IMG/VR virus record: IMGVR_UViG_3300010362_000046
Coordinates: 1-41,236 of that record
Source of the DNA: a virus
Taxonomy: Duplodnaviria; Caudoviricetes
Reading direction: 5' to 3' (one strand)
DNA length: 41,236 nucleotides
Numbering within the stretch: the first letter of the stretch is position 1; the number at the start of each line of letters is the position of its first letter. A program made the translations under genes and the position numbers. Positions 19,449 to 34,743 of this stretch are shown here, piece by piece. The notes under the pieces are model-generated. The model did no database searches and was not told the DNA's origin. It was given only the letters and a program-made list of their open reading frames with translations.

Positions 19449-20291
19449 GTGAGCGTCCAGTGGATGGGCGTTATCTTCGACCACGCCAGAGGCGTGAAGG
19501 GCGCGGAACGGCTCGTGCTCCTCTCGCTCGCGAACCACGCGAACGAGGATGGCTCGTGCTTTCCCGGTATCGCGACCATCGCACGGGAAGCCGGACTCAC
19601 CGAGTCCCACGTCCAACGCGTGATGGCGACACTCGTCCGCGACGGCTTCGTGACTCGTCGTCTCAACGGTGCGCCGATGGAGATGCTCGCGCACAGTCGT
19701 CCCGACCGCCGCCCGAACCTGTACCAACTTCAGCGGCACATCATCGAACGGGGTCGCGCAGATGTGGCCCCGCCGAAAAGTGCACGGGGTCGCGATCCAC
19801 GCGGGCACGGGGTCGCGATCCACGCGGGCACGGGGTCGCGCATTTCGCGACCCGAACCATCAGAAGAACCATCAGAGAACCGTCAAGAGATTGCGGAGCC
19901 TTCGGCTCTCGCCCTCCCTGGCCTAGAGGAACCGCGAACAGCAGAAGGGAAGAAGAACAGAAGACCCCGCCCGCCGGACGTTGTGTTCGAGGCGTTGTGC
20001 GAGGCGCTCGGTGCCAAGCCGCGGTTGCTGACGAAGACGGAGCGGGCGAAGTTCAACACGGCGGCGCAGCAGCTACGCGATGTCGACGCGACGCCGGGCG
20101 AGATCGCCGACCGGGCAGCCGAGTACGTCCGTCGCTATGGGACGGCCAGGCTGACGGCGATGGCGCTCGTCGGGCAGTGGTCATCGTTGGCCGTCCGGCC
20201 GGTACCGAGCCAGTCGTCAGGACCGCCGGGCTACGAGGAGCCTTACAACTGGAGCAACGTGACGTACCACAACGAGATCGAGGGGCTGTGA
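19449..20291 (+). CDS. Replication initiator with N-terminal HTH
   Basis: ERLVLLSLANHANEDGSCFPGIATIAREAGL...V...L is a typical phage initiator HTH; contains internal iterons; coupled to helicase. Confidence 0.85.
   Translation: MSVQWMGVIFDHARGVKGAERLVLLSLANHANEDGSCFPGIATIAREAGLTESHVQRVMATLVRDGFVTRRLNGAPMEMLAHSRPDRRPNLYQLQRHIIERGRADVAPPKSARGRDPRGHGVAIHAGTGSRISRPEPSEEPSENRQEIAEPSALALPGLEEPRTAEGKKNRRPRPPDVVFEALCEALGAKPRLLTKTERAKFNTAAQQLRDVDATPGEIADRAAEYVRRYGTARLTAMALVGQWSSLAVRPVPSQSSGPPGYEEPYNWSNVTYHNEIEGL
19748..19890 (+). repeat. Iteron array, probable replication origin
   Basis: 23-nt tandem GCACGGGGTCGCGATCCACGCGG at 19782 and 19805, partial copies at 19828 and 19748, inverted CGCGACCC at 19846, then A-rich GAACC(A/G)TCA x3. 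Confidence 0.8.
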
Positions 20292-21673
20292 GTCACGTCG
20301 TCCCGTTCGATCGGACCGGCAAGAAGTTCCCACCGTTCCCGGCGCAGTCCGAACCGCAGCAGCATCGTGCGGCGGGGAAGCCACCGGAAGGTGAGCGCCG
20401 CCCGAACCACCCGCCGCACGACATCTCCGTCGAGGCCGATGCGCTCGCGCTCATGCTCCAGGAACGGTCCGGTGCGGAGCATGTGTTCTCCGAGTGCACG
20501 GCGCTCGACTTCTACCTGCCGGAGCATCGGGCGATTGCGGGTGCGATCGAGGTGCTCCACCAGGCCGAGACGCCGACGACGTCCGCGTCGATCGTGGCGG
20601 CGAAGGTTCGGGAGTGTGGCTTCGACTCTCGGCCGGACGCGGCCAGGATCGAAGCGATCCGGCTGGCCGCAGCGCCATCACTGCCGGGCGAGGTGTACGG
20701 CCGGGAGATCCGGCGGCTGTCGGCATGTCGCGCGCTGTGGCAGTCCTCGGACGCGCAACGCCAACTCGCATGGAGTGGCGACCTGGATGGGGCGCTGACC
20801 GAGCGTGAGCGCGACGTGCCGCTGCCACGTGAGGTGCTCGGACGTCCGACCCGGATCGGGGAACTCCTCGAACGGCCGATCCCCGCGTACGACTGGCTCG
20901 TCGAGTCCCTGTTCGAGGTTGGCGACCGGGTGATCGTCACCGGCATGGAAGGCGGCGGGAAGACGACCCTCCTCCGGCAGGTCGCGACCTGCTGCGCGGC
21001 CGGATGGCATCCGTTCCGCTGCGTCCCGATCCCGCCGGTCCGGGTCCTGTACGTCGACCTCCAGGACGGCGAGAACCAAAACCGTCGCGAGTATCGGCGG
21101 CTCATCGACTACCTGCGCCGCTGCCACCGGTGGGACGACCGCCGGTTCGCGCTCCGGCTCCGGCTGGCCGGGATCGACCTGACGACCGCGTCGGATGTCG
21201 CCTGGCTGCATGAGGCGATCGACGAGCACCAGGCGGAACTCGTCTGCATCGGCCCGATCTACAAGTCGTACCGGGGGTCTGACCGGCGGGGGAAAGACTC
21301 GGAGGAGACCGCGCAACTGGTGCAGGACGAACTCGACCGGCTCCGGGCCGCGTACCGGATCGCGTTCTTCATCGAAGGCCACTCCCCCCACGGGACAGCC
21401 GGAGACCGAGCCGGGTACCGGATGCGCGGCTCGGCGTCATGGCAGGGCTGGCCTGAGCAGGTGCTCGGCATGGCTGGACTGCCCGACAAGCCCGGCGAAC
21501 CGAAGGCCGTCGAGCTACGCCGGTCGCGCGGTGATCGAGACCGGTCGTGGGATCGGTGGCCGCGCACCCTGTTCGAGGGTCGGCCAGGATCGTTGCCGTG
21601 GACCGGGAACGTGAGTCCGCCACCGAAGGATGACGGCTCGACCCTGCTCCGGCCCGACGATGACGTCTTCTGA
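20288..21673 (+). CDS. Replicative helicase (DnaB N-terminal domain plus RecA-like AAA domain)
   Basis: PPHDISVE...DFYLPEHRAI (DnaB-N); Walker A GMEGGGKTT; VLYVDLQ; RGSASW. Confidence 0.85.
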   Translation: MSHVVPFDRTGKKFPPFPAQSEPQQHRAAGKPPEGERRPNHPPHDISVEADALALMLQERSGAEHVFSECTALDFYLPEHRAIAGAIEVLHQAETPTTSASIVAAKVRECGFDSRPDAARIEAIRLAAAPSLPGEVYGREIRRLSACRALWQSSDAQRQLAWSGDLDGALTERERDVPLPREVLGRPTRIGELLERPIPAYDWLVESLFEVGDRVIVTGMEGGGKTTLLRQVATCCAAGWHPFRCVPIPPVRVLYVDLQDGENQNRREYRRLIDYLRRCHRWDDRRFALRLRLAGIDLTTASDVAWLHEAIDEHQAELVCIGPIYKSYRGSDRRGKDSEETAQLVQDELDRLRAAYRIAFFIEGHSPHGTAGDRAGYRMRGSASWQGWPEQVLGMAGLPDKPGEPKAVELRRSRGDRDRSWDRWPRTLFEGRPGSLPWTGNVSPPPKDDGSTLLRPDDDVF

Positions 21674-22280
21674 GCTAGTGAGGCATCATGTGCTCGTGCC
21701 CGACGAGTGGGATCTGTTCGCCGAGAGTGTCCGGCGGGCCGAGCGAGCCGTAGCCGTGGAGGCAGTCAGCACCGTGCCAGGCAAGCGAGCCGACTTCCAG
21801 GAGTGCACCGTCGTAACGGAGCCAGACGAGACTTGCGCGAGCACCACGCAACCTGAGCGAGCCGACCGCCGAGCTAGTGCCGTTGTAGGTGAGCGAGCCG
21901 CCAGTCCGGAGTGCGCCGAGTCCGGGAAGCGAGCCGTGGGTCTGAAGCACACCGCGATGCACGAGCGAGCCGCAAGCCAAGCGGGCACCGTGTCAAGGAA
22001 GCGAGCCACGCCAGAAGCGAGTACCGACGACTACGAGCGAGCCGCTTCTACTGCGAGTACCGATGACGGCGAGCGACCCGTAACCAGCGAGTGCACCGAG
22101 ATCATCGAGGACGACTGGGTCGAGATCGCATCCGTCCTCGGCACCGACACGATCCCCGCCCCGATGGCCTACGTCCTCACCCGCTGCATCGACCGGATGC
22201 TCGAACGCGACGAAGTCTCCCCGACCGCCCCCTGGCTCGCGATCGAGTACCTCGCCGCCGACTACCTGAGCGCCCCATGA
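21660..22280 (+). CDS. Hypothetical protein whose middle is encoded by the TIGR-like array
   Basis: Frame open through all 10 units giving ERA-x4-(S/C)T-x3 12-aa repeats; overlaps helicase stop and is ATGA-coupled to the next ORF. Confidence 0.55.
   Translation: MTSSELVRHHVLVPDEWDLFAESVRRAERAVAVEAVSTVPGKRADFQECTVVTEPDETCASTTQPERADRRASAVVGERAASPECAESGKRAVGLKHTAMHERAASQAGTVSRKRATPEASTDDYERAASTASTDDGERPVTSECTEIIEDDWVEIASVLGTDTIPAPMAYVLTRCIDRMLERDEVSPTAPWLAIEYLAADYLSAP
21741..22106 (+). repeat. TIGR-like guide RNA array A (10 units, 36-nt period)
   Basis: RAGCGAGCC-like repeat at 21741, 21783, 21819, 21855, 21891, 21927, 21963, 21999, 22035, 22071; second repeat (GAGTGCACC/GCGAGYACC) 18 nt after each from unit 2 on; unique ~9-nt spacers. 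Confidence 0.9.
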
Positions 22281-22585
22281 CCCCCGCCGTCGAAGCGATG
22301 CTCACCAACCCCCAAGCCCCCACTGCCCCCCTCCACGAGTTCCTCGACGCCTACCGCGCCGACGAGAACCTCTGGTGGAAACTCCCGTCCGGCCACCACC
22401 AGAACCTGTTCGACGAAGCCATCGACACCCTCGACCTCGTCGACGACCTCACCGAACTCCGCCGCGCCGTCCGCCGCGCCCTCAACGAACTCGGCGTCCC
22501 CGACGCCCACTACCCCGCCCCCGTCACCAACGCCGTCGAGATCCTCACCGACGCCCTCGGCCAAACCCGACCAGAACACTCATGA
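22277..22585 (+). CDS. Hypothetical protein
   Basis: 102 aa, ATGA overlaps at both ends. Confidence 0.65.
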   Translation: MTPAVEAMLTNPQAPTAPLHEFLDAYRADENLWWKLPSGHHQNLFDEAIDTLDLVDDLTELRRAVRRALNELGVPDAHYPAPVTNAVEILTDALGQTRPEHS

Positions 22586-23163
22586 ATCCGTGGGACCGCC
22601 GCGACAGCGAAACGAGCAAGTCCTACGACGCCTTCCAGCGATACCTCGCCCTCGGCCCCACCCGCAGCTACGTCAAGATCGTCGAGCAATACGAACGCCC
22701 GGCGAGCTACCACCGGCAGATCGAACGCTGGTCGAGTGAGAACGACTGGGTCGACCGCGCCCTCGCCTACGACGAACACCTCTGGGAACAAGACCGCCAA
22801 GAACAGATCGAAGAAGTCCGGCTCATGCGCCGCCGCCACAACCTCCTCGCCGTCACCGCCATCGAAAAAGCCGCCGAACGCATCAAGAACATCGAACCCG
22901 AACGTCTCTCCGTCAAAGACGCCATCGCCCTCGCCGAACTCGGCACCCGCCTCGAACGCGCCACCCGCGACCCCGGCGTCCCCGCCATCGAACTCACCCA
23001 GATCACCGTCGGCCCCTCCGGCTTCGACCTCCTCGAAGCCCTCCGCCGCTCCCCCCGCCTCGTCGACCTCATGGACGAAGTCGCCGTCTCCATCCCCGGC
23101 TTCGACGGCCGCACCGAACGCGCCGCCCGTCAGCGCATCCTCGATGCCGCTCCGGGCGAGTGA
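22582..23163 (+). CDS. Terminase small subunit (probable)
   Basis: WDRRDSETSKSYDAFQRYLALGPTRS...RWSSENDWVDRALAYD; immediately upstream of terL. Confidence 0.75.
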   Translation: MNPWDRRDSETSKSYDAFQRYLALGPTRSYVKIVEQYERPASYHRQIERWSSENDWVDRALAYDEHLWEQDRQEQIEEVRLMRRRHNLLAVTAIEKAAERIKNIEPERLSVKDAIALAELGTRLERATRDPGVPAIELTQITVGPSGFDLLEALRRSPRLVDLMDEVAVSIPGFDGRTERAARQRILDAAPGE

Positions 23164-24634
23164 CCTCGCACGCCACGGCTGGCGACTCCGACCCGACCTC
23201 CTCGGCGAACGGCTCTCCGCAGGCGACTACCAACGACCCCGCCACGTCCGCCACCTCGGCGCCCAGTTAGCGAAAACCATCGCGGCCGGGAACGGCCGAC
23301 TCCTCGTCACCGCCCCACCCCGCCACTCCAAATCCGAGACGTGCTCCCACTGGACCCCCACCTGGATCGAGCACCTCGACCCGAGAACCCGCGTCCTCCT
23401 CGCCTCCTACGAAGCGACCATCGCCGACGAATGGGGCCGCGCCGTTCGCAACACCCTCTCCGAACATCCCGAACTCGACGTCACCGTCTCCGACGACTCC
23501 TCCGCCGCCATGCGCTGGCGTACGAGCGAAGGCGGCGGCATGTGGACCGCCGGAGTCGGCGGACCCCTCACCGGCCGCGGCGGCGAACTCCTCATCATCG
23601 ACGACCCGTTCCGCAACCTCGCCGACGCCATGTCCGCCGTGAAACGCGACGCCTGCTGGAACTGGTACAAGGCCGTCGCCCGCACCCGCCTCCACCCCGG
23701 CGGCACGATCATCGTCATCACGACCCGCTGGCACACCGAAGACCTCGCCGGTCATCTCCTCGAACAAGGCGACTTCGACCACCTCCGCTTCCCCGCCCTC
23801 GCCGAACCCGACGAAGCCGACCGGCAACTCATCGACGCCGGTGTCCTCGACCTCGACGACTGGCGCGACCCGATCGGCCGCGCGTACGGCGAACCCCTCT
23901 GGCCCGAACGCTTCGATCTAGAGGCGCTAGAAGCCCTCAGGAGCGACGTCGGCGAGATGTGGGCCGGGCTATACCAGCAACGCCCCACGGACCTCCAGGG
24001 CGAGCTATTCGCCCGTCAGAAGTGGAACTACGCCGACGTCCCCCCCGCCGACCTCACCGCCCTCGTCCGCCGCTTCGACCTCGCCGCCACCAAAGAAGGC
24101 GGCGACTGGACCGCCGCCGTGCTCGAAGCCCGCGACGGCCAAGGCCGCACCTACATCCTCGACGTCCGCCGCGTGCAAGCCGACCCGGCCGACGTCGAAG
24201 CGTTCTGCCGGTCCGTGTGCGAAGACGACCGGAACCTCTACCGTGGCCGGGTGCGGGTGCGGGTCGAACAGGAACCAGGCGCGTCGGGCGTCGCCCTCCG
24301 CGACCGCTACGTCCGTCAGGTCCTCGCCGGGTTCCCGGTCACGTTCGCCCCGTCGTCGGGAGACAAGGTGATCCGGGCGCTCCCGTTCGCGGCGCAGGTC
24401 GGTGCCGGGAACGTCACGCTCTGCAAGGTCGCGCACCCGATGCTCCCGATCCCCGAAGACCGGCCGATCTGGATGACCGAGTTCGTCGAAGAACACGCCG
24501 CGTTCCCGCGCGGCGGCAACGACGACATGGTCGACGCCGCCTCCCTCGCGTTCAACGATCTCGTCGCCCACGCGCCGCAGCGGGCACGGGCGAAGTCGAT
24601 GTCGGACCGGCAGGTCCTCGGCCTGCTCCGGTGA
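23144..24634 (+). CDS. terL: Terminase large subunit
   Basis: PPRHSKS (Walker A), LLIIDDP (Walker B), TRWHTEDL, YQQRP, FDLAAT, EQEPGASG, NDDMVDA nuclease motifs. Confidence 0.95.
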   Translation: MPLRASDLARHGWRLRPDLLGERLSAGDYQRPRHVRHLGAQLAKTIAAGNGRLLVTAPPRHSKSETCSHWTPTWIEHLDPRTRVLLASYEATIADEWGRAVRNTLSEHPELDVTVSDDSSAAMRWRTSEGGGMWTAGVGGPLTGRGGELLIIDDPFRNLADAMSAVKRDACWNWYKAVARTRLHPGGTIIVITTRWHTEDLAGHLLEQGDFDHLRFPALAEPDEADRQLIDAGVLDLDDWRDPIGRAYGEPLWPERFDLEALEALRSDVGEMWAGLYQQRPTDLQGELFARQKWNYADVPPADLTALVRRFDLAATKEGGDWTAAVLEARDGQGRTYILDVRRVQADPADVEAFCRSVCEDDRNLYRGRVRVRVEQEPGASGVALRDRYVRQVLAGFPVTFAPSSGDKVIRALPFAAQVGAGNVTLCKVAHPMLPIPEDRPIWMTEFVEEHAAFPRGGNDDMVDAASLAFNDLVAHAPQRARAKSMSDRQVLGLLR

Positions 24635-24786
24635 GGAACTGGTTCGTCGCCGACGAGCGGCCGTGGCGCTGCCCGGTCTGCTGGGAACGGACCAACAAGC
24701 GGGTCAGGTGGTGGCGGATCTACCGGTGCAAGCTGGGTCACCGGTGGACGCGGCTGCCGATCCCCGGCCGTCTCCGCTGGGAGTAG
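24631..24786 (+). CDS. Small zinc-ribbon protein
   Basis: GTGA overlap; CPVC...YRCKLGHRW. Confidence 0.5.
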   Translation: MRNWFVADERPWRCPVCWERTNKRVRWWRIYRCKLGHRWTRLPIPGRLRWE

Positions 24787-24814
24787 GACATTTCACGACG
24801 AACCACGCGCAAAC

Positions 24815-25165
24815 CGGGACATACACGACGGCCCGGCTCCGGGGTCGCGATCCCCTCGGCCGGGCCATGTGTCGCTGCTCGGGTCACGTCCTACCGAGCG
24901 CCCCAGCATTCCGACTCTGACCGCTGTGGACGGCGAGGTAGCTGGTGCTTGCCAGCGTTGGGGCAGGTTCCCTGGTCAAGCCCACCGCGCGCGGCGGGTC
25001 CGCTGGCGTGATCTCGGGGGCTGCTCCCCCCGCCGGGCGCTCGACACGAACCTCCCCGGTCGTCACCGGACGAGTAGGCGGCACCTGACGGGGCAGCAGG
25101 CCCCTGGCGGCGAGGGGAGTCTCCCCGCCCTCGCACCAGGTACAACACCGTACGCCGCCGCATAT
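24815..25165. ncRNA. Candidate structured non-coding RNA
   Basis: No convincing ORF; about ten consecutive or nested stems visible by eye. Confidence 0.45.
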
Positions 25166-25179
25166 TCCCGTGGTGGAAC

Positions 25180-25536
25180 TTACGACTCGTCGGGTCCGTA
25201 CCGCTCCACGAAGTCCATCGACCGGTCGACGTCGTCGTCCTCGGCGGGCAGGCCCCGCCGCGCCCGCCACTCGTTCATCGCCTGGTTCACGAGCGCCGGA
25301 GTGAACGCCGGACCGGACGGCGCCTGCTGCTGCTCCGGCGTGACCTCGACGTCCATGCTCGCCAGCAACTGCCGCAGTAGCTCCTCACCCTCGGCGTCGA
25401 GCCGCCCTTCTTCGAGCGCGATCCCCCCGGCGAGGATCATGAACACGACCGTCATCGGCTGCACGTGCAGCTTCCGGGCGATCTGCCCGGCGAGTTGCCG
25501 CTGCCGAGCATCGAGCCGGACCCACGCCTCGGTCAC
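25180..25536 (-). CDS. Hypothetical protein
   Basis: GTG start overlapping upstream stop; 118 aa. Confidence 0.6.
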   Translation of the reverse strand: MTEAWVRLDARQRQLAGQIARKLHVQPMTVVFMILAGGIALEEGRLDAEGEELLRQLLASMDVEVTPEQQQAPSGPAFTPALVNQAMNEWRARRGLPAEDDDVDRSMDFVERYGPDES

Positions 25537-25727
25537 GACGTCACCCGCCGGAGCCGCAGCACGTAGATCCCGACCGGCCCGACCTTCCACGCCCGCCGCA
25601 GGATCGTGTCGCCGTACATCCACCGGTGCCCGGCGCAGAAGTCCTCGCCGGTCGAGTAGCCGATCCGGGTCCACTCCCACGGCCCGCGTTCGTGGCGGAC
25701 GGTGCGTTCGGACACGCGTGGTTCCAT
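25533..25727 (-). CDS. Hypothetical protein
   Basis: 64 aa; -10-like TAGGCT 6 nt before ATG (leaderless). Confidence 0.55.
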   Translation of the reverse strand: MEPRVSERTVRHERGPWEWTRIGYSTGEDFCAGHRWMYGDTILRRAWKVGPVGIYVLRLRRVTS

Positions 25728-25774
25728 CCCCCGAGCCTAGATAACTCCAGCCGTTAGTGGAGTAAACTTCTGGC
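25728..25774. promoter_or_regulatory. Divergent leaderless promoters with operator
   Basis: TAAACT (25763-68) 6 nt before + ATG; TAGGCT 6 nt before - ATG; ACTCCA-N8-TGGAGT inverted repeat 25744-25763. Confidence 0.6.
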
Positions 25775-26062
25775 ATGCCAAAGCCACACTCCGTCTCCGT
25801 ACAAGATGCACTGTGGGACGAAGCGATGGCCCGTGCGAAGTCCGAGAAACGGTCCCTGTCGGGGACGATCTCGACGCTGCTGCGCGGCTGGCTCGACGGC
25901 CAGATACACCTCGACACGTCCGCTCCGGCGTCGAACGGGACGCAACCCGACGACGAGTGCCTCCACCGGCAGCTTCGGTTCCTGCGGGCCGCGCAACGCT
26001 ACAAGTGCGAAGCCTGTGGACAACTGTTCGCGCAGCGGCCGTCCCGCGCCACCGTTCACTAA
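25775..26062 (+). CDS. Ribbon-helix-helix DNA-binding protein with C-terminal Zn ribbon
   Basis: HSVSVQDALWDEAMARAKSEKRSLSGTISTLLRGWL fits RHH; CLH...CEACG. Confidence 0.7.
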   Translation: MPKPHSVSVQDALWDEAMARAKSEKRSLSGTISTLLRGWLDGQIHLDTSAPASNGTQPDDECLHRQLRFLRAAQRYKCEACGQLFAQRPSRATVH

Positions 26063-26064
26063 CG

Positions 26065-26439
26065 GTGCTGGTCGAGCCGGTCGTCGCGCTCGTCATCGCG
26101 CTCGCCGTCTACCGGGTCGCGCGCGGCCTCACGTCCGACTCGCTGTTCGAGGGCTGGCGGGACCGGCTCGAACGGTGGGGCTACCAGGAGGACCGGCTCG
26201 CGTACCGCAACGTCGAACTGAAAGGGCGGGGCCACTCGAAGTACCTGACGCTCACGCGGGGGAAGCTGGTGGACCTGCTGACCTGCCCGATGTGTCTCAG
26301 CTTCCACGGCGCCTGGATCGCGCTGTGTGTGTGGACGACGTCATGGCCGTGGCAACTCGGCTGGAAGGGCTGGACCCTGGCGTTCGGGATTGCCGGGGCC
26401 TGCGCCCTGTTCTTCGGCTGGGATGCCTACGAGGAGTGA
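26065..26439 (+). CDS. DUF1360-like membrane protein
   Basis: LAVYRVARGLTSD...LLTCPMCLS plus hydrophobic segments. Confidence 0.7.
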   Translation: MLVEPVVALVIALAVYRVARGLTSDSLFEGWRDRLERWGYQEDRLAYRNVELKGRGHSKYLTLTRGKLVDLLTCPMCLSFHGAWIALCVWTTSWPWQLGWKGWTLAFGIAGACALFFGWDAYEE

Positions 26440-26580
26440 CCGGGCTTCGGTCATCGCTGCGGCCCACCGGTCGTCCCAGCCAGGGAGTTCGGCGGTCGCG
26501 GCTTCTTCGTCGAGTGCGACGATGCGGGCGAGGAGTTCGAGCACGGCGACCTGACCGCGCGCGAATGGTTCGGTGCTCAC
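26341..26580 (-). CDS. Hypothetical protein
   Basis: GTG start supplied by the last repeat (GTGAGCACC) of array B; 3' end overlaps the convergent gene. Confidence 0.45.
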   Translation of the reverse strand: MSTEPFARGQVAVLELLARIVALDEEAATAELPGWDDRWAAAMTEARSLLVGIPAEEQGAGPGNPERQGPALPAELPRP

Positions 26581-26886
26581 GGGTGAGACGGCTCGCTCAA
26601 GTACGTCGGTGTGCTCCCAGAACACGGCTCGGCTGGGACGGTGCTCACCATGATCTCGGCTCGCGCTTTGCGGCAACGGTGCTCACACACGCAACGGCTC
26701 GCTCTCGAACTTCGGTGCCCTGCCATCTTCACGGCTCGCTGTCGAGACTCGGTGCACTCCGATACCACGGCTCGCTCGGTGACGACGGTGCCCGTCGTAC
26801 GTTTCGGCTCGCTCCCACAGCACGGTGCCCTCAAAGACATCGGCTCGCTCACGCTTCCCGGTGCGCTTCGCACCTACGGCTCACGC
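26572..26886 (-). repeat. TIGR-like array B (about 8.5 units)
   Basis: + strand GGCTCGCTC-like at 26590, 26626, 26658, 26696, 26733, 26769, 26806, 26842, 26878 alternating with GGTGCNCTC-like repeats. Confidence 0.9.
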
Positions 26887-27018
26887 CCGCGGTTGACGGC
26901 GATCGCTCCGTTCTTCTCCAGCCTCGTGATCGCGTTCGCGACGGCGTTCCCCGGCGACGACCAACGCGCAGAACAGGCCGACGAGGACTCCGGCAGCGAA
27001 TGCGGTTGCGGGCTTCAC
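26881..27018 (-). CDS. Small single-TM protein between arrays
   Basis: GTG directly after a GGGGAGCGAGCC repeat; AFAAGVLVGLFCALVVAG; its TGA lies in the first repeat of array B. Confidence 0.5.
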   Translation of the reverse strand: MKPATAFAAGVLVGLFCALVVAGERRRERDHEAGEERSDRRQPRA

Positions 27019-27102
27019 GGCTCGCTCCCCTGAGTACGGTGCGACACTTGGCTCACGGCTCACTCTTGACGTGCGGTGCTCTCCCCACTTACCGGCTCAG
27101 AA
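27019..27102 (-). repeat. TIGR-like array C (2 units)
   Basis: Repeat 1 at 27019, 27057, 27094; repeat 2 at 27038, 27075. Confidence 0.7.
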
Positions 27103-27316
27103 CGACACGACAGTGGATCTCGCAGTTCGCCGGGAGCACGTCGGCGAGGAACGACGACCCGTTGAACTCCTCGGCGGTGACGGTCACCTCGTAGACGTCG
27201 AGGCCATCGCGCGACGTCCGGACCCACTCGGGATCGAGCGGGATCGTGGTCTTCGCTCCGGTCTCGGGATCGAGACGCATGAGGCGCAGACCTTCGGGCT
27301 TACAGCGATCTGTCAT
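27089..27316 (-). CDS. Hypothetical protein
   Basis: 75 aa; TACACT box 8 nt upstream of ATG. Confidence 0.6.
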   Translation of the reverse strand: MTDRCKPEGLRLMRLDPETGAKTTIPLDPEWVRTSRDGLDVYEVTVTAEEFNGSSFLADVLPANCEIHCRVVLSR

Positions 27317-27590
27317 CGGCCGCTAGTGTAGCCGCCTCGACTTCGTCGACCTGGGTCCATTCGCGTGCGACGTACACCCACAGTTGCTCGTCGTGGTACT
27401 CGGCGGACACGATCCGTTCATCGAGACCGAGGCGGATCTCGTGGTCGGCGACCGTGATGATCAGCCGAACCGAGCCGCGCCGACCGAAGTAGACGCCCGG
27501 CTCGTCGCTCTTGTAGTCCGGTGCACTCGCTGTCGTCGGCTCGCTCGAATCCTCCGGTGCGCGCATGTCCTTACGGCTCGCTCGCTTCAT
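27300..27590 (-). CDS. Hypothetical protein (N-terminus overlaps array D)
   Basis: 96-aa ORF; start uncertain. Confidence 0.5.
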   Translation of the reverse strand: MKRASRKDMRAPEDSSEPTTASAPDYKSDEPGVYFGRRGSVRLIITVADHEIRLGLDERIVSAEYHDEQLWVYVAREWTQVDEVEAATLAADDRSL

Positions 27591-27655
27591 GTGGTGCGGT
27601 CACGGGAATCGGCTCGCTTCCTCTCTCCGGTGCCCTCCGGCAAGGCGGCTCACAA
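27499..27655 (-). repeat. TIGR-like array D (4 units)
   Basis: Repeat 1 at 27499, 27538, 27575, 27611, 27647; repeat 2 at 27520, 27556, 27593, 27629. Confidence 0.85.
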
Positions 27656-27958
27656 CGCGGCGCGGGTCTGCTCGTTGACGCCCTGCTGCGGCGACAACAT
27701 GAGCCGGTCGGTCTGCGTCGTGAAGTCCGTCGCCGACCGGGTGAGGAGCGTCTCGGTGAGCGGCGTCCGGTTCACCTTCTGCACGACCGGCGGCACCGAC
27801 GCCAACGGCGGCAGCGGCGCGGTCCCGATCCGGGCGAGCGCATCGTCGGCGAACACCCGGTCGCCATACGCGGCGACGATCGCCCGGTCCGGCAGTCGAC
27901 GCACAACCCACGGGTCGTTCGGCTCGCGGGTCGGGTCGTAGTCCTGGAAGTACCGCAT
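27650..27958 (-). CDS. Hypothetical protein
   Basis: 102 aa, GGAGG RBS; TGA lies in the first repeat of array D. Confidence 0.65.
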   Translation of the reverse strand: MRYFQDYDPTREPNDPWVVRRLPDRAIVAAYGDRVFADDALARIGTAPLPPLASVPPVVQKVNRTPLTETLLTRSATDFTTQTDRLMLSPQQGVNEQTRAAL

Positions 27959-27962
27959 CGTC

Positions 27963-28079
27963 CTACCTCCGGTGATGCCAGGCCGTGCAGGCGATCGCGC
28001 CGAGGAGTAAGCCCATGACGAACCAGGCGGCGACGGCCATGACCTCGGCCTCTCGTGCGGTCGGTGCTGGCTGCATCAT
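27963..28079 (-). CDS. Small TM peptide (38 aa)
   Basis: Hand translation MMQPAPTAREAEVMAVAAWFVMGLLLGAIACTAWHHRR; starts inside the last repeat of array E. Confidence 0.4.
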   Translation of the reverse strand: MMQPAPTAREAEVMAVAAWFVMGLLLGAIACTAWHHRR

Positions 28080-28232
28080 GCTCGCTCGATGTTCTCGGTG
28101 CGCTGACTCACGACGACTCGCTCTCTACTGGCGGTGCTCGCAGTTGCCGACGGCTCGCTCGGTCATGTCGGTGCGCTCACTCACGTCGGCTCGCTCACCT
28201 ACCCCGGCGCGCTCGCTACTGGTGGCTCACGC
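28063..28232 (-). repeat. TIGR-like array E (about 4.5 units)
   Basis: Repeat 1 at 28079, 28115, 28152, 28188, 28224; repeat 2 at 28063, 28097, 28133, 28170, 28206. Confidence 0.85.
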
Positions 28233-28454
28233 TGCGCGTCCCTCGTCCACGAACCGCCAGAACTCGACGTTCGGACCCCCGTGAATCCAGGTGAACCGAC
28301 AGAGGTCGTTGCCGTGCTCGTCCGTCACGACGTAGTCGTACGGCTCACTCGAAGAACCTCTCGCCGTGACGTGGAACCACACCTTGCGAGCCGGGCACCA
28401 CACGACGCTGGCGTATCGCACACCGTCGGTCGTGTAGGCGTATCGCTTGTTCAT
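28227..28454 (-). CDS. Hypothetical protein
   Basis: 75 aa, GGAGG RBS, ATGA overlap; TGA lies in the first repeat of array E. Confidence 0.65.
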   Translation of the reverse strand: MNKRYAYTTDGVRYASVVWCPARKVWFHVTARGSSSEPYDYVVTDEHGNDLCRFTWIHGGPNVEFWRFVDEGRAA

Positions 28455-28807
28455 GCGCCCTCCTCGCCTTCCTCCTCAGCCTGTAGCTGCGCCTCGATCT
28501 CCGGCCGGATCTCGGGCACGTCGGTCCAGCCCGGCCACCGTTCCGCGTCCTCGGCCTTGCCGTCGAGTTCGGCCCACCGCCAGATCTCCTCGTCGGCCAT
28601 GATCCGGCCCGACTTCGCGCGCAGCACATCGTCGTCGGGGAGCCGTTCGACGAGGGTCACCTCGAACACGCCGTCGGGTAGCTCCCGGACCGGCAGGACG
28701 AGACGGCCGACCTCACCGGTGCCGGGCCGCTTCCCGCACCGACGGCAGATCGGGTTCCCGCCGTTGAACTTCCAGGCATGCCGGTGCGGCATCCAGCGCG
28801 GGATCAT
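28451..28807 (-). CDS. Hypothetical protein with HxH...CxxC motif
   Basis: ATG overlapping the Tas stop (ATGA); 118 aa. Confidence 0.6.
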   Translation of the reverse strand: MIPRWMPHRHAWKFNGGNPICRRCGKRPGTGEVGRLVLPVRELPDGVFEVTLVERLPDDDVLRAKSGRIMADEEIWRWAELDGKAEDAERWPGWTDVPEIRPEIEAQLQAEEEGEEGA

Positions 28808-29670
28808 CCGAACGACGGCGGCGCGATGTAGTGCGCGTGACCGCCCTCCGGCGTCAAGATGTACGGCTTCGGCGGCGGCTCCCCGTACCGGTCCTGGTAC
28901 ATCACGTGATGCAGGTGAGAGAGGAACAGCTTCACCGCCCACCGCCGGGCGCGCAGGTCGAGCCGCCCGACCGGCAGATGCCCGGACTCGTAGATCGCCC
29001 GTGTCGCCGCGTCGGTGATCTTCCGCTGCTCCAACGTCTCGAACGCGGTCCGCTGGTTGTGCTCCGACGCCGGACCGATCACCTTGCCGTCGACGTCGCG
29101 GCCGTCGCGTGTCAGTTCGTACTGCTTCCGTTCCCGGTACATCCGGCCGTAGAAGGCGTTCTCCCGGCCCGAGACCTTCACGAAGCTGTCGCCCAGCTTC
29201 CAGCACAGGACCTTCAGTTCGGCGTTCCACGGGCGCCGCTCGCCCTTGCCCCACTTCTTCGTCGGGTCGAGACCCGCGAACCGCCAGATGTGCCCGACGG
29301 TCGGTGCCCGCTCGATGTCGATGTGGGCGAGGAGACCGGCCGCGAGGACCGGTCCGACGCCAAGCTGGGCGCGTGCCCACTCCCCCGCGGTCTGCGACAT
29401 CGAGAAGACGTCGAGGACCGAGACCATCTGCTTCTCCAACGCGCCGATCTGCCGGGCGAAGTGATCGACGATCGCCGTCGGTCGTTCCGCCGCGGCGAGC
29501 GACCGGGCCTGGTTGTTCAGCGCGATGCGATGTTCCTGCAACTCGTAGTAGAGCGCGACGAGTTCTCGGGCCTCGTCGCGTCCGACGAGCGCACCGGCGC
29601 TGCGGACGTCGCGGCCCAGCTTGTCGACGGCGGAGAGCAGGTCGGGGGTGGCGTCGATGACGTCGGTCAT
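28804..29670 (-). CDS. TasA-like IS110/Nop-domain RNA-binding protein without RuvC domain
   Basis: IS110-type coiled coil (RELVALYYELQEHRIALNNQ), GVGPVLAAGLLAHI, WRFAGLDP, WNAELK, RARRWAVKLFL; no N-terminal DEDD domain; flanked by 36-nt dual-spacer arrays. Confidence 0.85.
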   Translation of the reverse strand: MTDVIDATPDLLSAVDKLGRDVRSAGALVGRDEARELVALYYELQEHRIALNNQARSLAAAERPTAIVDHFARQIGALEKQMVSVLDVFSMSQTAGEWARAQLGVGPVLAAGLLAHIDIERAPTVGHIWRFAGLDPTKKWGKGERRPWNAELKVLCWKLGDSFVKVSGRENAFYGRMYRERKQYELTRDGRDVDGKVIGPASEHNQRTAFETLEQRKITDAATRAIYESGHLPVGRLDLRARRWAVKLFLSHLHHVMYQDRYGEPPPKPYILTPEGGHAHYIAPPSFG

Positions 29671-29984
29671 CCAGTCGACTCCTCAGGTTCGGTTCGGGGA
29701 TGGGTCGGCCAGTTCGGCGTCGGTTCACGGCCGGTCTGCCGCCGGTACTCCTCGTAGTGCTCGGGTCGCCGGAGCCGTCCGGTCTCACCGGCCCACAGGA
29801 GAATCCGGTTCCATTCCCACGCCCGCGAGCCGTTGATCGCCGTGTAGTCGGGGTCCGGGAGCGCGTGCCGGTACCGCCACGTGTGGACGGTGCGGACGGG
29901 GACGCCGAGCCGTTCGGCGATCTCCAGGATGCCGACGGGGTCCGCCGGGCGGAGCGAATGGGTCGTTTCGGTGCTCATGTTCAT
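29667..29984 (-). CDS. HTH DNA-binding protein (AlpA/MerR-like)
   Basis: PVGILEIAERLGVPVRTVHTWRYRHALPDPD; ATGA-coupled to the Tas gene; TACAGT 6 nt before ATG. Confidence 0.8.
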   Translation of the reverse strand: MNMSTETTHSLRPADPVGILEIAERLGVPVRTVHTWRYRHALPDPDYTAINGSRAWEWNRILLWAGETGRLRRPEHYEEYRRQTGREPTPNWPTHPRTEPEESTG

Positions 29985-29988
29985 GCGC

Positions 29989-30285
29989 TCACTGTAGTGA
30001 GGTGTACGACGCTCGGGAGTGCTCCACGAGCCGGACGTTGACGTAGTCGGAGGTGGTCGAGACCTTGAGGAGGCAGGCCGGGCAGAGGACCTTCGGGCCG
30101 ACCATCACTGCGGGGGCGAGGCCGGACGACGGCGTGTAGCCGATGGCGAGGCCGGAGCCGGAGCATCGCTCCTGTTCATCGGTGCTCTCTCGGAACGCGG
30201 CTCGCTCACTTGTAACGGGACTCTCGGTACGAGCGGCTCGCTCGATGTTCTCGGCGCGCTCACGTTGTGCGGCTGTGCGATACAT
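29989..30285 (-). CDS. Hypothetical protein with array-encoded N-terminus and CxxC
   Basis: ATG 7 nt after a TACACT box; frame open across array F. Confidence 0.45.
   Translation of the reverse strand: MYRTAAQRERAENIERAARTESPVTSERAAFRESTDEQERCSGSGLAIGYTPSSGLAPAVMVGPKVLCPACLLKVSTTSDYVNVRLVEHSRASYTSLQ
30163..30279 (-). repeat. TIGR-like array F (3 units)
   Basis: Repeat 1 at 30163, 30199, 30235, 30271; repeat 2 at 30181, 30217, 30253; exact 36-nt spacing. Confidence 0.8.
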
Positions 30286-30290
30286 GGCCG

Positions 30291-30304
30291 CTAGTGTAGC
30301 ACAC
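30291..30304 (-). promoter_or_regulatory. Extended -10 promoter upstream of array F, HTH and Tas
   Basis: Reverse complement GTGTGCTACACTAG, same motif as at 35574, 36572 and 37876. Confidence 0.7.
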
Positions 30305-30310
30305 CCGGCG

Positions 30311-30523
30311 TCAGATCGGGAGCGAGGTCTGCCCCGGCGACAACCCGGACCGCAACTTCGAGATGCAGTCGTTGCACGCCCACCGGCCCGTCGGCTCCTC
30401 ACACACGATCGCGTGGGTCCCGCCCTCGCGGCGTTTCTTCACCCAGCCGGTCACCTCGAACCACTCCTCGGCCGGGCCGTGCGAACCGTCACCGTCGAAC
30501 GTGCACTGGCGATAGTCGGGCAT
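30311..30523 (-). CDS. Small Cys-containing protein
   Basis: ATG 6 nt after a TGCGACACT box; 70 aa. Confidence 0.5.
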   Translation of the reverse strand: MPDYRQCTFDGDGSHGPAEEWFEVTGWVKKRREGGTHAIVCEEPTGRWACNDCISKLRSGLSPGQTSLPI

Positions 30524-30698
30524 CCGAGCAGTGTCGCACGATCGACTCCCACGCAGCGTGATCCACGTACACGTACGTGATGTCACTATACGTGGTTGTT
30601 CGTGCAAAGACGCCGACGTTCCGTGAGATTTGCCCATTTACAGCGAGGGAACGTCGACGTACGCTGCACCGCACTAACTCACGGATGGAAGGAGACGC

Positions 30699-31547
30699 AT
30701 GGGCAGGGTCATGATCCCGCCGACGTGGACGGCGGCGAAGCAGGCGCTCGGCAACCTCGAAGGGCTGGTCACGGCGAAGGAGTGGGAGCGAGCGGCGATC
30801 GTCTGGGCCTTCACCGAACCGGGCCGCGGTGGTCCCCGAACCTCACGACAATCCGTGAAGTTGTCGGTGAAGGAGTTCAGCGAGCAGGGCATCAGCGGTC
30901 TCCGATCGCAGGACACCGTCCGCTTCTACCGGAGCCAGTGGGACCGAGCGATGCGCGACGCCGGTGCTCGTGCCGCCGAACCCGGCAAGACCCTCACCCT
31001 GCCGCTCGACCTCGACTGGCAGGACCACGGCGACGAGCAGCGCAAGAAGCGGTACGTCGAGAAGGACGAAGCCGCGATCTGCCGGTCGATCGACCGGCAG
31101 GACCTCGACGCCGAAGTCCTCGCCCAGAACCTGTCCGACGAAGCGGCGCGCACGGTCGCGGCCCGGCTGATCGAAGACCGGCCCGACATCGCCCGCGACC
31201 TCGTCGACGATCCGACGACCGACATGGCGCTCATCAAGGCCCGGATCGAGAAGGAAGCCGAGGAACGCGAGGAGCACGAGCGCAACGAGTTCGAGTCGTC
31301 CGGCGGGATCGCCGACGTCCACGACTACGTCCGCGCCACGGTCCTCGTCGGCACCGCCCGGCACAAGCTGAACCAGGCGCTCAAGATCCTCCACTCGCTG
31401 CCGCCGCTGCCCGAGTTGCAGCGCAACGACCTCCGCCAGGAGATCCGCTGGTTGGAGTCGTCGGTCGAGTGGCTGAAGGAAGTCGCGAAGGCCCGCCGGG
31501 CCGCATCGCTCGGAGAGGAGGTCGAGGAGTTCCTGTCGAACCAGTAG
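30699..31547 (+). CDS. Hypothetical helical protein
   Basis: 282 aa, AAGGAG RBS, typical codon bias. Confidence 0.75.
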   Translation: MGRVMIPPTWTAAKQALGNLEGLVTAKEWERAAIVWAFTEPGRGGPRTSRQSVKLSVKEFSEQGISGLRSQDTVRFYRSQWDRAMRDAGARAAEPGKTLTLPLDLDWQDHGDEQRKKRYVEKDEAAICRSIDRQDLDAEVLAQNLSDEAARTVAARLIEDRPDIARDLVDDPTTDMALIKARIEKEAEEREEHERNEFESSGGIADVHDYVRATVLVGTARHKLNQALKILHSLPPLPELQRNDLRQEIRWLESSVEWLKEVAKARRAASLGEEVEEFLSNQ

Positions 31548-33834: not shown

Positions 33835-34743
33835 GTGAAATACGCGGATCTGTGCAAGAAGGTCTCCGACCAGATCGCCGATGCGATCGAGGCCGGGACC
33901 GCGAACGGCAAGTGGGAGTTGCCCTGGTACTCGCTCGGGCAGGCGAAAAACGCCCGCACCGGCGCCACGTACAAGGGCATGAACTGGCTGCTGCTTTCCC
34001 ACCTCCCGTGGTGGGCGACCTACAACCAGTGGCAGGACCTGGGCCTCCAGGTCAAGAAGGGTGAGACCGCCACGCCCGGCATGTTCTGGGGGCCGATCAC
34101 CCGGAAGAACAAGGCGACCGGCGCCTACGAGGATGTCCTCGACGACAACGGCCGACGCCGGGTCGCGGGCCGAGGGTTCTCGGTCTTCTCCTACGAGCAG
34201 GTCGAACCCCGCTCCGACGAGAAGTGGGTCGCGTCCGGCAAGGTGCCGTGGACGCCGCCGCCCGCCGAAGCGGCCGGGGCCGAGGTCCTCGACCATGCCG
34301 AGGCACTGATCGAGGCGCTCGCACCGCGGGTCGAGCACCACGGCGACCGGGCCTACTACGCGCCCGTCATCGACGTGATCGTCCTGCCGCCCCGAGACCA
34401 GTTCCACTCGACCGAGGGCTACTACGCCACGAAGTTCCACGAGGTCGGCCACTGGACCGGCCACGAATCCCGCCTCGCCCGCAAGTACGGGTGGGCCGGA
34501 TCGGACGACTACGCGTTCGAGGAACTCGTCGCGGAGTTGACGGCGGCGATGGTCTGCGCCGCGGTCGGCATCTCGCCCGAGCCTCGCCCGGACCACGCGG
34601 TCTACGTGAAGGGCTGGCTGTCGAAGCTGCGGTCGGACCCGACGGCCCTGCCCCGTGCGGCCGGGCTGGCGACGAAGGCCGCGAACTTCATCCTCACCGG
34701 CGGTGAGGTCCCGTCCAAGGAGAAGGAGGAGGTGGCCGCATGA
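33835..34743 (+). CDS. ardC: ArdC-family antirestriction protein (ssDNA-binding plus zincin-like domain)
   Basis: WELPW...NARTGATYKGMN...WATYNQWQDLGLQVKKGE; YYATKFHEVGHWTGHESRL; YAFEELVAE. Confidence 0.92.
   Translation: MKYADLCKKVSDQIADAIEAGTANGKWELPWYSLGQAKNARTGATYKGMNWLLLSHLPWWATYNQWQDLGLQVKKGETATPGMFWGPITRKNKATGAYEDVLDDNGRRRVAGRGFSVFSYEQVEPRSDEKWVASGKVPWTPPPAEAAGAEVLDHAEALIEALAPRVEHHGDRAYYAPVIDVIVLPPRDQFHSTEGYYATKFHEVGHWTGHESRLARKYGWAGSDDYAFEELVAELTAAMVCAAVGISPEPRPDHAVYVKGWLSKLRSDPTALPRAAGLATKAANFILTGGEVPSKEKEEVAA

Follow-up and report, generated by a model that had tools for sequence, protein, structure and literature searches.

A fragmented dual-repeat TIGR-TasA locus in a siphovirus, with small open reading frames between its array pieces

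The DNA examined here—'the window'—is the whole of one linear virus record, that of a soil phage (IMG/VR record IMGVR_UViG_3300010362_000046; Duplodnaviria, Caudoviricetes; 41,236 bases, rated as about 55% complete), and our subject is the TIGR (tandem interspaced guide RNA) system that it encodes: a gene for a Tas protein, and guide arrays that lie between, and in part inside, small open reading frames (ORFs). The layout is real and well supported, and represents a fragmented version of the dual-repeat TIGR-TasA kind; the mechanism that we attach to it is inferred. An earlier note on this DNA had reported arrays alternating with ORFs along the minus strand, and every feature it named is present where it was placed. 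Its inventory comprised A1–A4 of the following list; A0, which is upstream of the tas operon, and Ap, which is on the plus strand, had been overlooked.

30261-30162, minus strand: A0, about 2.5 units (unit table), upstream of the tas operon and inside ORF U (29989-30285)
28232-28078, minus strand: A1, 4 units (unit table)
27655-27501, minus strand: A2, 4 units (unit table)
27102-27018, minus strand: A3, 2 units (unit table)
26886-26551, minus strand: A4, about 9 units, the final one degenerate (unit table and chain detector)
21741-22116, plus strand: Ap, 10 units (unit table), in the same orientation as the surrounding plus-strand genes

Two repeats, each of 10 nucleotides (nt), alternate in these arrays: an 'edge' repeat, GAGCGAGCCG, and a 'loop' repeat, GAGnGCACCG. 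The spacers are 8–9 nt long, always with CCG on the 5′ side and GAG on the 3′ side, and the units are 36–37 nt long, some 31 in total, 28 of which were parsed cleanly by script. Five of the six arrays are on the minus strand and one is on the plus strand, and all six share the orientation of the genes they adjoin. The first edges of A1–A4 are truncated on the 5′ side, retaining only TGAGCC(G/A), and last edges are truncated on the 3′ side (GAGCGAGCAT, GAGCGACGAG and GAGCGATGCT). Short alternating repeats, many units of approximately 36 nt, and truncated terminal edges together make these dual-repeat TIGR arrays. A detector of half-repeat chains recovers all of them, against 0.05 chains per shuffled 41-kb strand at its four-repeat setting; a search of positions 21000-31000 against Rfam, at E-values up to 1, returned no matches. 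The arrays nearest to tas are 492 nt upstream and 572 nt downstream of it, with genes in both gaps. Contig pieces identical to the window across 27774-28211 and 26253-26697 occur in a second sample, from another study, which excludes faulty assembly of a single data set as the source of the layout. In the parts they cover, these contigs are identical fragments only, none with a different gene content.

Some spacers recur. The spacer AGAACATC is both the first of A0 (30251-30244) and the last of A1 (28095-28088), with matching flanking repeats, and versions with one mismatch are present in Ap (the last spacer, 22099-22106) and in A4 (26656-26649). Such recurrence suggests that units have been copied or exchanged between arrays, and the loop-AGAACATC-edge unit with which A0 starts and A1 ends would be a product of such an exchange. 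There are also two more near-identical spacer pairs within A1.

The Tas protein is encoded upstream of A1, directly behind a gene for a putative DNA-binding protein with a helix-turn-helix (HTH):

28804-29670, minus strand: tasA, a Tas protein of 288 amino acids (aa) with a coiled coil and a Nop domain and without a nuclease domain (phrog_4285, phmmer, fold)
29667-29984, minus strand: HTH DNA-binding gene (phrog_597, 2.5e-6, and weak HTH matches in Pfam), its stop overlapping the tas start (ATGA)

The tasA product matches phrog_4285 at 6.8e-41 and, in a phmmer search of the PDB, TasR (9mty_A, 2.7e-12) and TasH (21kl_A, 2.3e-8). An AlphaFold2 model built on 36 relatives has a mean pLDDT of 90.4 and is all-helical over residues 9–262. 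When this model was compared with the PDB by Foldseek, the top ten matches were chains of TasH and TasR only (probability 1.00; TM-scores 0.50–0.73), and the matches next below them were IS110-family recombinases. The protein has, then, the coiled coil and Nop-domain fold of Tas, and belongs to a large family: 4442 proteins at E ≤1e-5 among 8000 candidates scored. It is of the TasA subtype because HNH and RuvC domains are absent; Pfam detects neither, its sole match being a weak Transposase_20 stretch. Toward the end of the protein, in a C-terminal loop of low pLDDT, H278 and H280 are invariant and Y270 is nearly invariant in the alignment of 36 relatives. Their spacing resembles that of Y289 and H296 of SpTasH, which process the precursor and are situated in a flexible C-terminal region (PMC13421893). 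A Tyr/His dyad is described as retained in dual-repeat systems (Xu 2026, bioRxiv 10.64898/2026.09.09.750476).

Downstream of tas, eight ORFs interleave with A1–A4. As a yardstick for coding we used the GC content of third codon positions (GC3), which is 0.90 +/- 0.03 over 17 long genes of the window; GC1 and GC2 denote the other two positions.

28451-28807, minus strand: W0, 118 aa (GC3 0.88), with ATGA overlaps to tas and W1
28227-28454, minus strand: W1, 75 aa (GC3 0.82; homolog P0134)
27963-28079, minus strand: W2, a 38-aa hydrophobic peptide (GC3 0.85)
27650-27958, minus strand: W3, 102 aa (GC3 0.94; homolog P0121)
27300-27590, minus strand: W4, 96 aa (GC3 0.77-0.78; gene-like low GC2 of 0.40)
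27089-27316, minus strand: W5, 75 aa, or 63 aa from ATG 27280 (GC3 0.82-0.86)
26881-27018, minus strand: W6, 45 aa from GTG 27018, a doubtful gene (GC3 0.65, GC1 0.83)
26341-26580, minus strand: W7, probably not a gene (GC3 0.68), overlapping the convergent DUF1360 gene at 26065-26439

The boundaries between these ORFs and the arrays are drawn within the repeats themselves. The TGA codons of W1, W3 and W6 occupy positions 4–6 of a first edge repeat (GCGTGAGCCA, TTGTGAGCCG and GCGTGAGCCG), bearing out what had been noticed before for three upstream ORFs, and the TAA that ends W5 lies 3 nt past the first edge of A3. A T at edge position 4, the base that creates the TGA, is present in all four first edges of A1–A4 and in one of the 20 other minus-strand edges (approximately 5e-4; hypergeometric, by hand). 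If stop-in-edge context is defined as a stop codon, (G)CC, a half-repeat in register and then the next half-repeat, it occurs in 3/358 ORFs of the window of at least 40 aa—exactly W1, W3 and W6. At the other ends of the arrays, ORFs begin. ATG 28079 of W2 closes the last edge repeat of A1, GAGCGAGCAT(G), and GTG 27018 of W6 follows immediately after the last edge of A3, as the earlier note said of both; the third start that it cited, GTG 26580 of W7, opens a loop repeat of A4. The two candidate ATGs of W4, 27590 and 27566, are both within A2, and the next in-frame canonical start is 30 codons past the array.

The eight ORFs are not equally gene-like. W1, W2, W3 and W5 are probable genes, because their GC3 is gene-like, W1 and W3 have homologs, ATGA overlaps chain the HTH gene, tas, W0 and W1, and a GGAGG stands eight bases 5′ of the W3 ATG. 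The homolog of W1 (P0134) is a small protein of 83 aa with 39% identity over 77 aligned columns. That of W3 (P0121) is 91% identical, with conservative changes and a one-codon, in-frame difference in length; encoded on a metagenome contig of 2,011 bp, it is the only close relative of the locus. W4, for which the evidence is intermediate, is possibly a gene. For W6 and W7 a coding role is unsupported; an antisense ORF at 26893-27033 on the plus strand has better codon statistics (GC3 0.83) than W6 (0.65). Searches of phage records by tblastn with W0, W1, W3, W4, W5 and the C-terminal part of U gave no matches; W3 was not found in viral contigs, and a protein atlas held no usable match to W0 or W3. 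As side observations, residues 27–60 of W1 match stretches that are repeated 6–11 times per protein in repeat proteins of 1,000–3,000 aa (representative library), and small hydrophobic peptides accompany arrays or tas in two phages—W2 (38 aa) here and a 33-aa peptide in another locus (L004, 6798-6899)—though the two sequences are dissimilar.

Arrays also lie within coding sequence. Three of them—A0, part of A2, and Ap—are inside the 5′ coding part of genes other than tas, two of which have not been listed above:

21678-22280, plus strand: the ORF that contains Ap, 200 codons (open frame), between genes for a DnaB-like helicase and terminase
29989-30285, minus strand: ORF U, 98 aa, whose 5′ part is A0, the frame being open through A0 to ATG 30285

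Of the three frames across Ap, one is open; five and four stops interrupt the others. The 58 codons that follow the array (22107-22280) have a GC3 of 0.91, and the last 54 residues of the ORF are similar to the C-terminal end of a protein with a ParB N-domain from Faecalibacterium phage FP_Brigit (tblastn 9e-8; compared pairwise, 37% identity and 7e-13, from residue 146 at position 22113). Because this match begins before the first ATG downstream of Ap, at 22164, the ORF must start inside or ahead of the array. The FP_Brigit gene is likewise located just ahead of a small terminase gene. What the ORF at 21678-22280 lacks is the N-terminal domain of ParB. In ORF U, GC3 is 0.95 over the 19 codons after A0 (30109-30165) and 0.90 over 29989-30108, and from the end of A0 up to GTG 30108 neither ATG nor GTG nor TTG occurs. 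ORFs with embedded arrays begin, then, in or before those arrays. We claim no selection for translation of the repeats: the spacer bases of Ap, with GC of 0.60/0.50/0.63 by codon position against a GC3 of 0.90 in genes, have no codon bias. Units that are multiples of three, together with the open frame of Ap, were considered as signs of such selection and dropped, since half-repeats are 18 nt apart in 2120/2318 instances across the family, and the 36-nt period is thus the family default; an open frame is in any case expected about one time in four in that register (hand estimate). Between ORF U and the HTH gene, at 29993-29960 on the minus strand, the stop of the one and the start of the other fall in a stretch that is like one degenerate guide unit—an edge-like GAGCGCAT, a short spacer and a loop-like GAGCACCG—and that resembles the region of the W2 start. 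Possibly it is the scar of a former array.

To place the window among its relatives, 204 loci around Tas relatives were fetched: 80 viral, 42 genomic, 80 metagenomic, one earlier viral and the window itself. The window's repeat family was detected in 142 of the 204 (the window included), nearly always on the tas strand and adjoining tas. The tas stop is in a degenerate first edge at 60 of 161 non-redundant tas 3′ ends, compared with 0/965 control positions inside tas; it takes the forms TGAGCC, TAGCC or TAACC, and is followed by an 8–9-nt spacer and a loop repeat. ORFs other than tas on the array strand end in this way in 15 of 5123 cases, versus one of 6494 opposite-strand ORFs, and they include long and evidently genuine genes, of 401 aa with a GC3 of 0.96 (L201) and of 233 aa with a GC3 of 0.89 (L149). 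Upstream of tas the picture is complementary. In 29 of the 39 non-redundant loci with an array there, tas starts 0–40 nt past the last strong half-repeat (0–25 nt in 15 loci and 26–40 nt in 14); it starts farther away in six and inside the array in one, and was not found in three.

A junction rule emerges: at the upstream end of an array the 5′ half of a first edge, degenerate in sequence, is fused to a gene's stop, and at the downstream end a gene starts in or just past a 3′-truncated last edge. This is the family's normal grammar for any gene that flanks an array. The stops in repeats that had drawn attention here are real, but special to this locus they are not. At array ends, it appears, conservation is limited to the half-edges of mature guides, against which phage genes are packed. 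The text of Faure 2025 (PMC12045711) does not mention stop or start codons, and that of Xu 2026 (10.64898/2026.09.09.750476) names codons only in a figure legend and does not mention interleaving. So far as searches of the literature reach, preprint supplements lying outside them, the family-wide rule seems not to be in print.

In most relatives the array is unbroken. The nearest of those fetched (L003), with 61% Tas identity, has a single uninterrupted array of about 16 units that begins at the tas stop, and W0–W7 were found in none of the 204 loci. Gaps of at least 120 nt within arrays number 29, non-redundantly, among the array-bearing loci when weaker repeats are allowed, and about ten of these separate two arrays; 58 apparent gaps in loci of lower GC were not counted as genes, since they shrank to the 29 once weaker repeats were admitted. 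Several junctions elsewhere do hold genes. In L005, two sub-arrays are separated by a 143-aa ORF whose stop overlaps the repeat that follows it, and a 33-aa hydrophobic ORF and a 47-aa ORF that ends TAGCCG lie between tas and the array (L004). In L082, a gene for an HNH homing-type endonuclease (5486-5998) is located between an upstream array and tas, its ATG coming after GAGCGCAC and its stop overlapping the tas start. In L180, a GGACT (gamma-glutamyl cyclotransferase-like) gene (5333-5878) has a single guide unit before it and an array after it, and ends TAGCC. And in L084, an endonuclease VII gene (2047-2700) lies between tas and the array; a second short stretch just before that array encodes a Tas-like C-terminal motif (GGHAHKIEVP), and it looks as if a mobile endonuclease gene entered near the 3′ end of tas. 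Among approximately 140 loci compared, the window is the most fragmented TIGR locus, but it is not unique.

Of the two explanations that the earlier note had offered, the insertion of cargo genes into one ancestral array gains indirect support from the unbroken array of the nearest relative, from the absence of W0–W7 in the 204 loci, and from the foreign genes at junctions elsewhere. In our view the lineage-specific small genes are most likely cargo, which recombination at repeats would have inserted between guide units. The other explanation, in which array processing would split the polycistron into separately controlled messages, would fit the geometry.

How does this compare with what has been described? 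The locus is like the dual-repeat TIGR-TasA systems of Faure 2025 (PMC12045711) and Xu 2026 (10.64898/2026.09.09.750476) in its solo-Nop Tas, its edge and loop repeats of ~10 nt, its 8–9-nt spacers and 36-nt units, its truncated terminal edges, its arrays on both sides of tas and its phage host, and it equals the geometry of SpTIGR in having 16 variable bases per guide (Faure 2025). It differs in that the array is in six pieces, none of which tas touches, one of which is 6.5 kb away on the other strand, and some of which are inside non-tas genes; and no terminator was found past the last unit. Arrays between tasParB and tasA are described by Faure 2025 (PMC12045711), and in those loci, as in ours, dual-repeat arrays lie on either side of a gene other than tas; there the gene is one conserved partner, whereas here there are seven small unrelated ORFs, and the ParB-like piece of the window is a 54-residue, C-terminal match to a phage protein, far from tas and on the opposite strand. 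The same paper describes a stem-loop TasA locus with three sub-arrays, the splits of ~450 nt between them being called intergenic, and Xu 2026 describes guide units inside tas that do not disrupt its frame. Common to those cases and to the window are guide units in frame within coding sequence, and gaps of several hundred bases between arrays. Those involve tas itself, mostly stem-loop systems, and an intergenic gap; here it is non-tas genes, dual-repeat arrays and gene-filled gaps, instead. The layout, which the earlier note had offered as apparently undescribed for TIGR loci, is not wholly so: arrays between tasParB and tasA, sub-arrays some 450 nt apart and arrays inside tas are already in these two papers.

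Regarding transcription, one 14-mer that contains TACACT stands out, since it occurs twice on the minus strand:

30286-30299, minus strand: candidate promoter, with ATG 30285 of ORF U immediately adjoining (+0)
27318-27331, minus strand: second copy, candidate promoter inside the 3′ end of W4, with ATG 27316 of the long form of W5 following after 1 nt

Leaderless genes are common in actinobacteria, and the two copies are candidate promoters of genes of that kind. By a rough estimate, chance should produce exact 14-nt repeats in a 41-kb stretch of 68% GC, and the lead rests on the ATG that follows both copies.

Unless we misjudge the locus—and our confidence is somewhat better than even—it comprises a nuclease-less dual-repeat TIGR-TasA system whose array is in six pieces, with small genes set at guide-unit boundaries, the whole likely being co-transcribed; TasA would excise the 36-nt guides. 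The leftward block, from about 30285 to 26440, would be one transcript, or two if the 14-mer at 27331 is a promoter, and Ap would be carried on the rightward helicase–terminase transcript. TasA would bind the units, and its C-terminal Tyr/His loop would cleave in the middle of the edges, as in SpTasH, to release some 31 guides. Mature 36-nt guides are described as starting and ending in the middle of the edge repeat (Faure 2025, PMC12045711); mid-edge cleavage would keep just the half-edges of mature guides, which would explain why these alone are conserved at array ends. Those cuts would, in addition, part U, the HTH-tas-W0-W1 group, W2-W3, W4, W5 and the remainder from one another. By analogy with the TasA of Xu 2026 (10.64898/2026.09.09.750476), the guide complexes of which repress DNA by binding it, TasA and its guides might then bind to DNA and repress it here, too.

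A number of points weigh against this. Co-transcription, the points at which TasA would cut, and the translation of the small ORFs are all deduced from the DNA sequence, and the equivalence of the Tyr/His residues to those of SpTasH is suggested by position and conservation. A consensus scan of 25000-31000 found no promoters, no minus-strand terminators and one terminator-like site on the plus strand, and the trailing region, 26425-26575, folds no better than its shuffles (z -0.64). The lack of a Rho-independent terminator after the array carries little weight, because hosts of high GC often lack T-tract terminators. The codon statistics of W6 and W7 are non-coding, and W4, sought among 5.8 billion proteins of similar length, matches itself alone. 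In neither tandem geometry does a spacer pair match the window at one mismatch or fewer; matches with two mismatches were discarded, being equally frequent in nonsense geometries. The comparison behind the cargo origin draws on loci with at most 61% Tas identity. Finally, insertion into one ancestral array cannot explain Ap, 6.5 kb off on the opposite strand, and some seeding or rearrangement of arrays must have occurred as well.

That last point leads to a history of the opposite kind, in which the small genes were there first and TIGR units spread into gene boundaries and 5′ ends in two operons, co-transcription and cutting by TasA being the same. The position of Ap—in another operon, on the other strand, inside the ParB-C-like gene—speaks for this history, and A0 and part of A2 are also within coding sequence; near-identical spacers (AGAACATC, AGATCATC and AGATCATG) recur in A0, A1, Ap and A4, as the copying of segments would have it, and in L180 a solitary unit stands before the GGACT gene. 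We nevertheless think it unlikely. In the nearest relative the array is contiguous and begins at the tas stop; most of the 142 loci have contiguous arrays that adjoin tas, with only 29 gaps of 120 nt or more; and the genes between the arrays are orphans, absent from other Tas loci. We know of no mechanism by which TIGR arrays spread.

More conventionally, the sub-arrays might be independent transcription units, separated by ordinary spacers that hold promoters or terminators, with ORFs that are mostly spurious and whose codon overlaps with the repeats serve no purpose. The poor codon statistics of W6 and W7, the want of a homolog for W4, and the TACACT 14-mer, which could mark internal promoters, are compatible with this, as are the sub-arrays split by an intergenic region in Faure 2025 (PMC12045711). 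Set against it are the homologs of W1 and W3, the gene-like GC3 of W1, W2, W3 and W5, the GGAGG site of W3 and the ATGA overlap of W1; elsewhere, the stop-in-edge context is strongly enriched at genuine long genes of high GC3, such as the 401-aa ORF of L201, and between stop codon and first guide there is no space for a promoter. This we regard as quite improbable. That the repeats might not specify guide RNAs at all, and encode repetitive segments of protein, instead, we consider very improbable indeed. Ap and A0 share an open frame in which the edge reads Glu-Arg-Ala, and both continue into coding sequence. However, the spacers of Ap lack the third-position GC bias of genes, units of both 36 and 37 nt occur in the minus-strand arrays and would break any frame, and these repeats are found beside tas in 142 of the 204 loci; with a period of 36 nt as the family default, the open frame is no evidence of selection.

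If guides are indeed excised from shared transcripts, the cuts might have a second purpose. It is conceivable—we hold it doubtful—that mid-edge cuts by TasA double as a means of maturing and controlling messages, a kind of 'guide punctuation' in which the sub-arrays would be Tas-dependent gene timers as well as stores of guides. At a first edge, the cut would fall in or at the upstream stop codon (TG|AGCCG or T|AGCCG), leaving a message without a stop and the gene throttled; in relatives, the gene so throttled would be tas itself. At a last edge, what the downstream gene would keep is a leader only a few bases long, and messages of this form are well translated in actinobacteria. U, W4 and the ParB-C-like ORF, whose 5′ coding parts contain an array, would be turned off as TasA builds up. 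Comparable arrangements exist in the transfer RNA punctuation of mitochondrial polycistrons and in polycistronic clusters of small nucleolar RNAs of the box C/D type, where structured RNAs abut cistrons and their excision frees messages, some of them leaderless. If our interpretation holds, the likeness would be one of working, and not of descent, and the RNAs concerned here would be guides that target DNA.

The remainder of the window is that of a siphovirus, 68% GC overall (65–71% across the window). Profile matches identify a major tail protein, a tape measure protein (4809-9383), Erf and WhiB; a DnaB-like helicase (20288-21673), small and large terminase (22582-24634) and an ArdC-like protein are encoded, also. 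WhiB and the GC content together suggest that the host is an actinobacterium. The ArdC-like protein (33835-34743, plus strand) is of the anti-restriction type and contains a zincin-like metallopeptidase domain (PF08401 with PF18818). A distant blastn search of 25800-30600 against phage records found no matches at the DNA level. Past A4 lies the gene that W7 overlaps:

26065-26439, plus strand: DUF1360 gene (PF07098 match; GC3 0.92), convergent with W7

Xu 2026 (10.64898/2026.09.09.750476) names as open questions the transcription of TIGR arrays, the definition of their ends and the way in which they grow. For annotation, the locus is a warning: array finders that assume one block beside tas will miss pieces, and gene callers will misplace starts that are located inside arrays. 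For experiment, it offers a compact piece of 4 kb, with five sub-arrays and reporter-ready genes, in which one might ask whether the maturation of guides controls their neighbors. And for the family, the locus and the junction rule together indicate that the arrays of this Tas clade lack room for a promoter of their own. With only the half-edges of mature guides conserved at their ends, and no room for a promoter, the guides of these systems would be carved from messenger RNAs.

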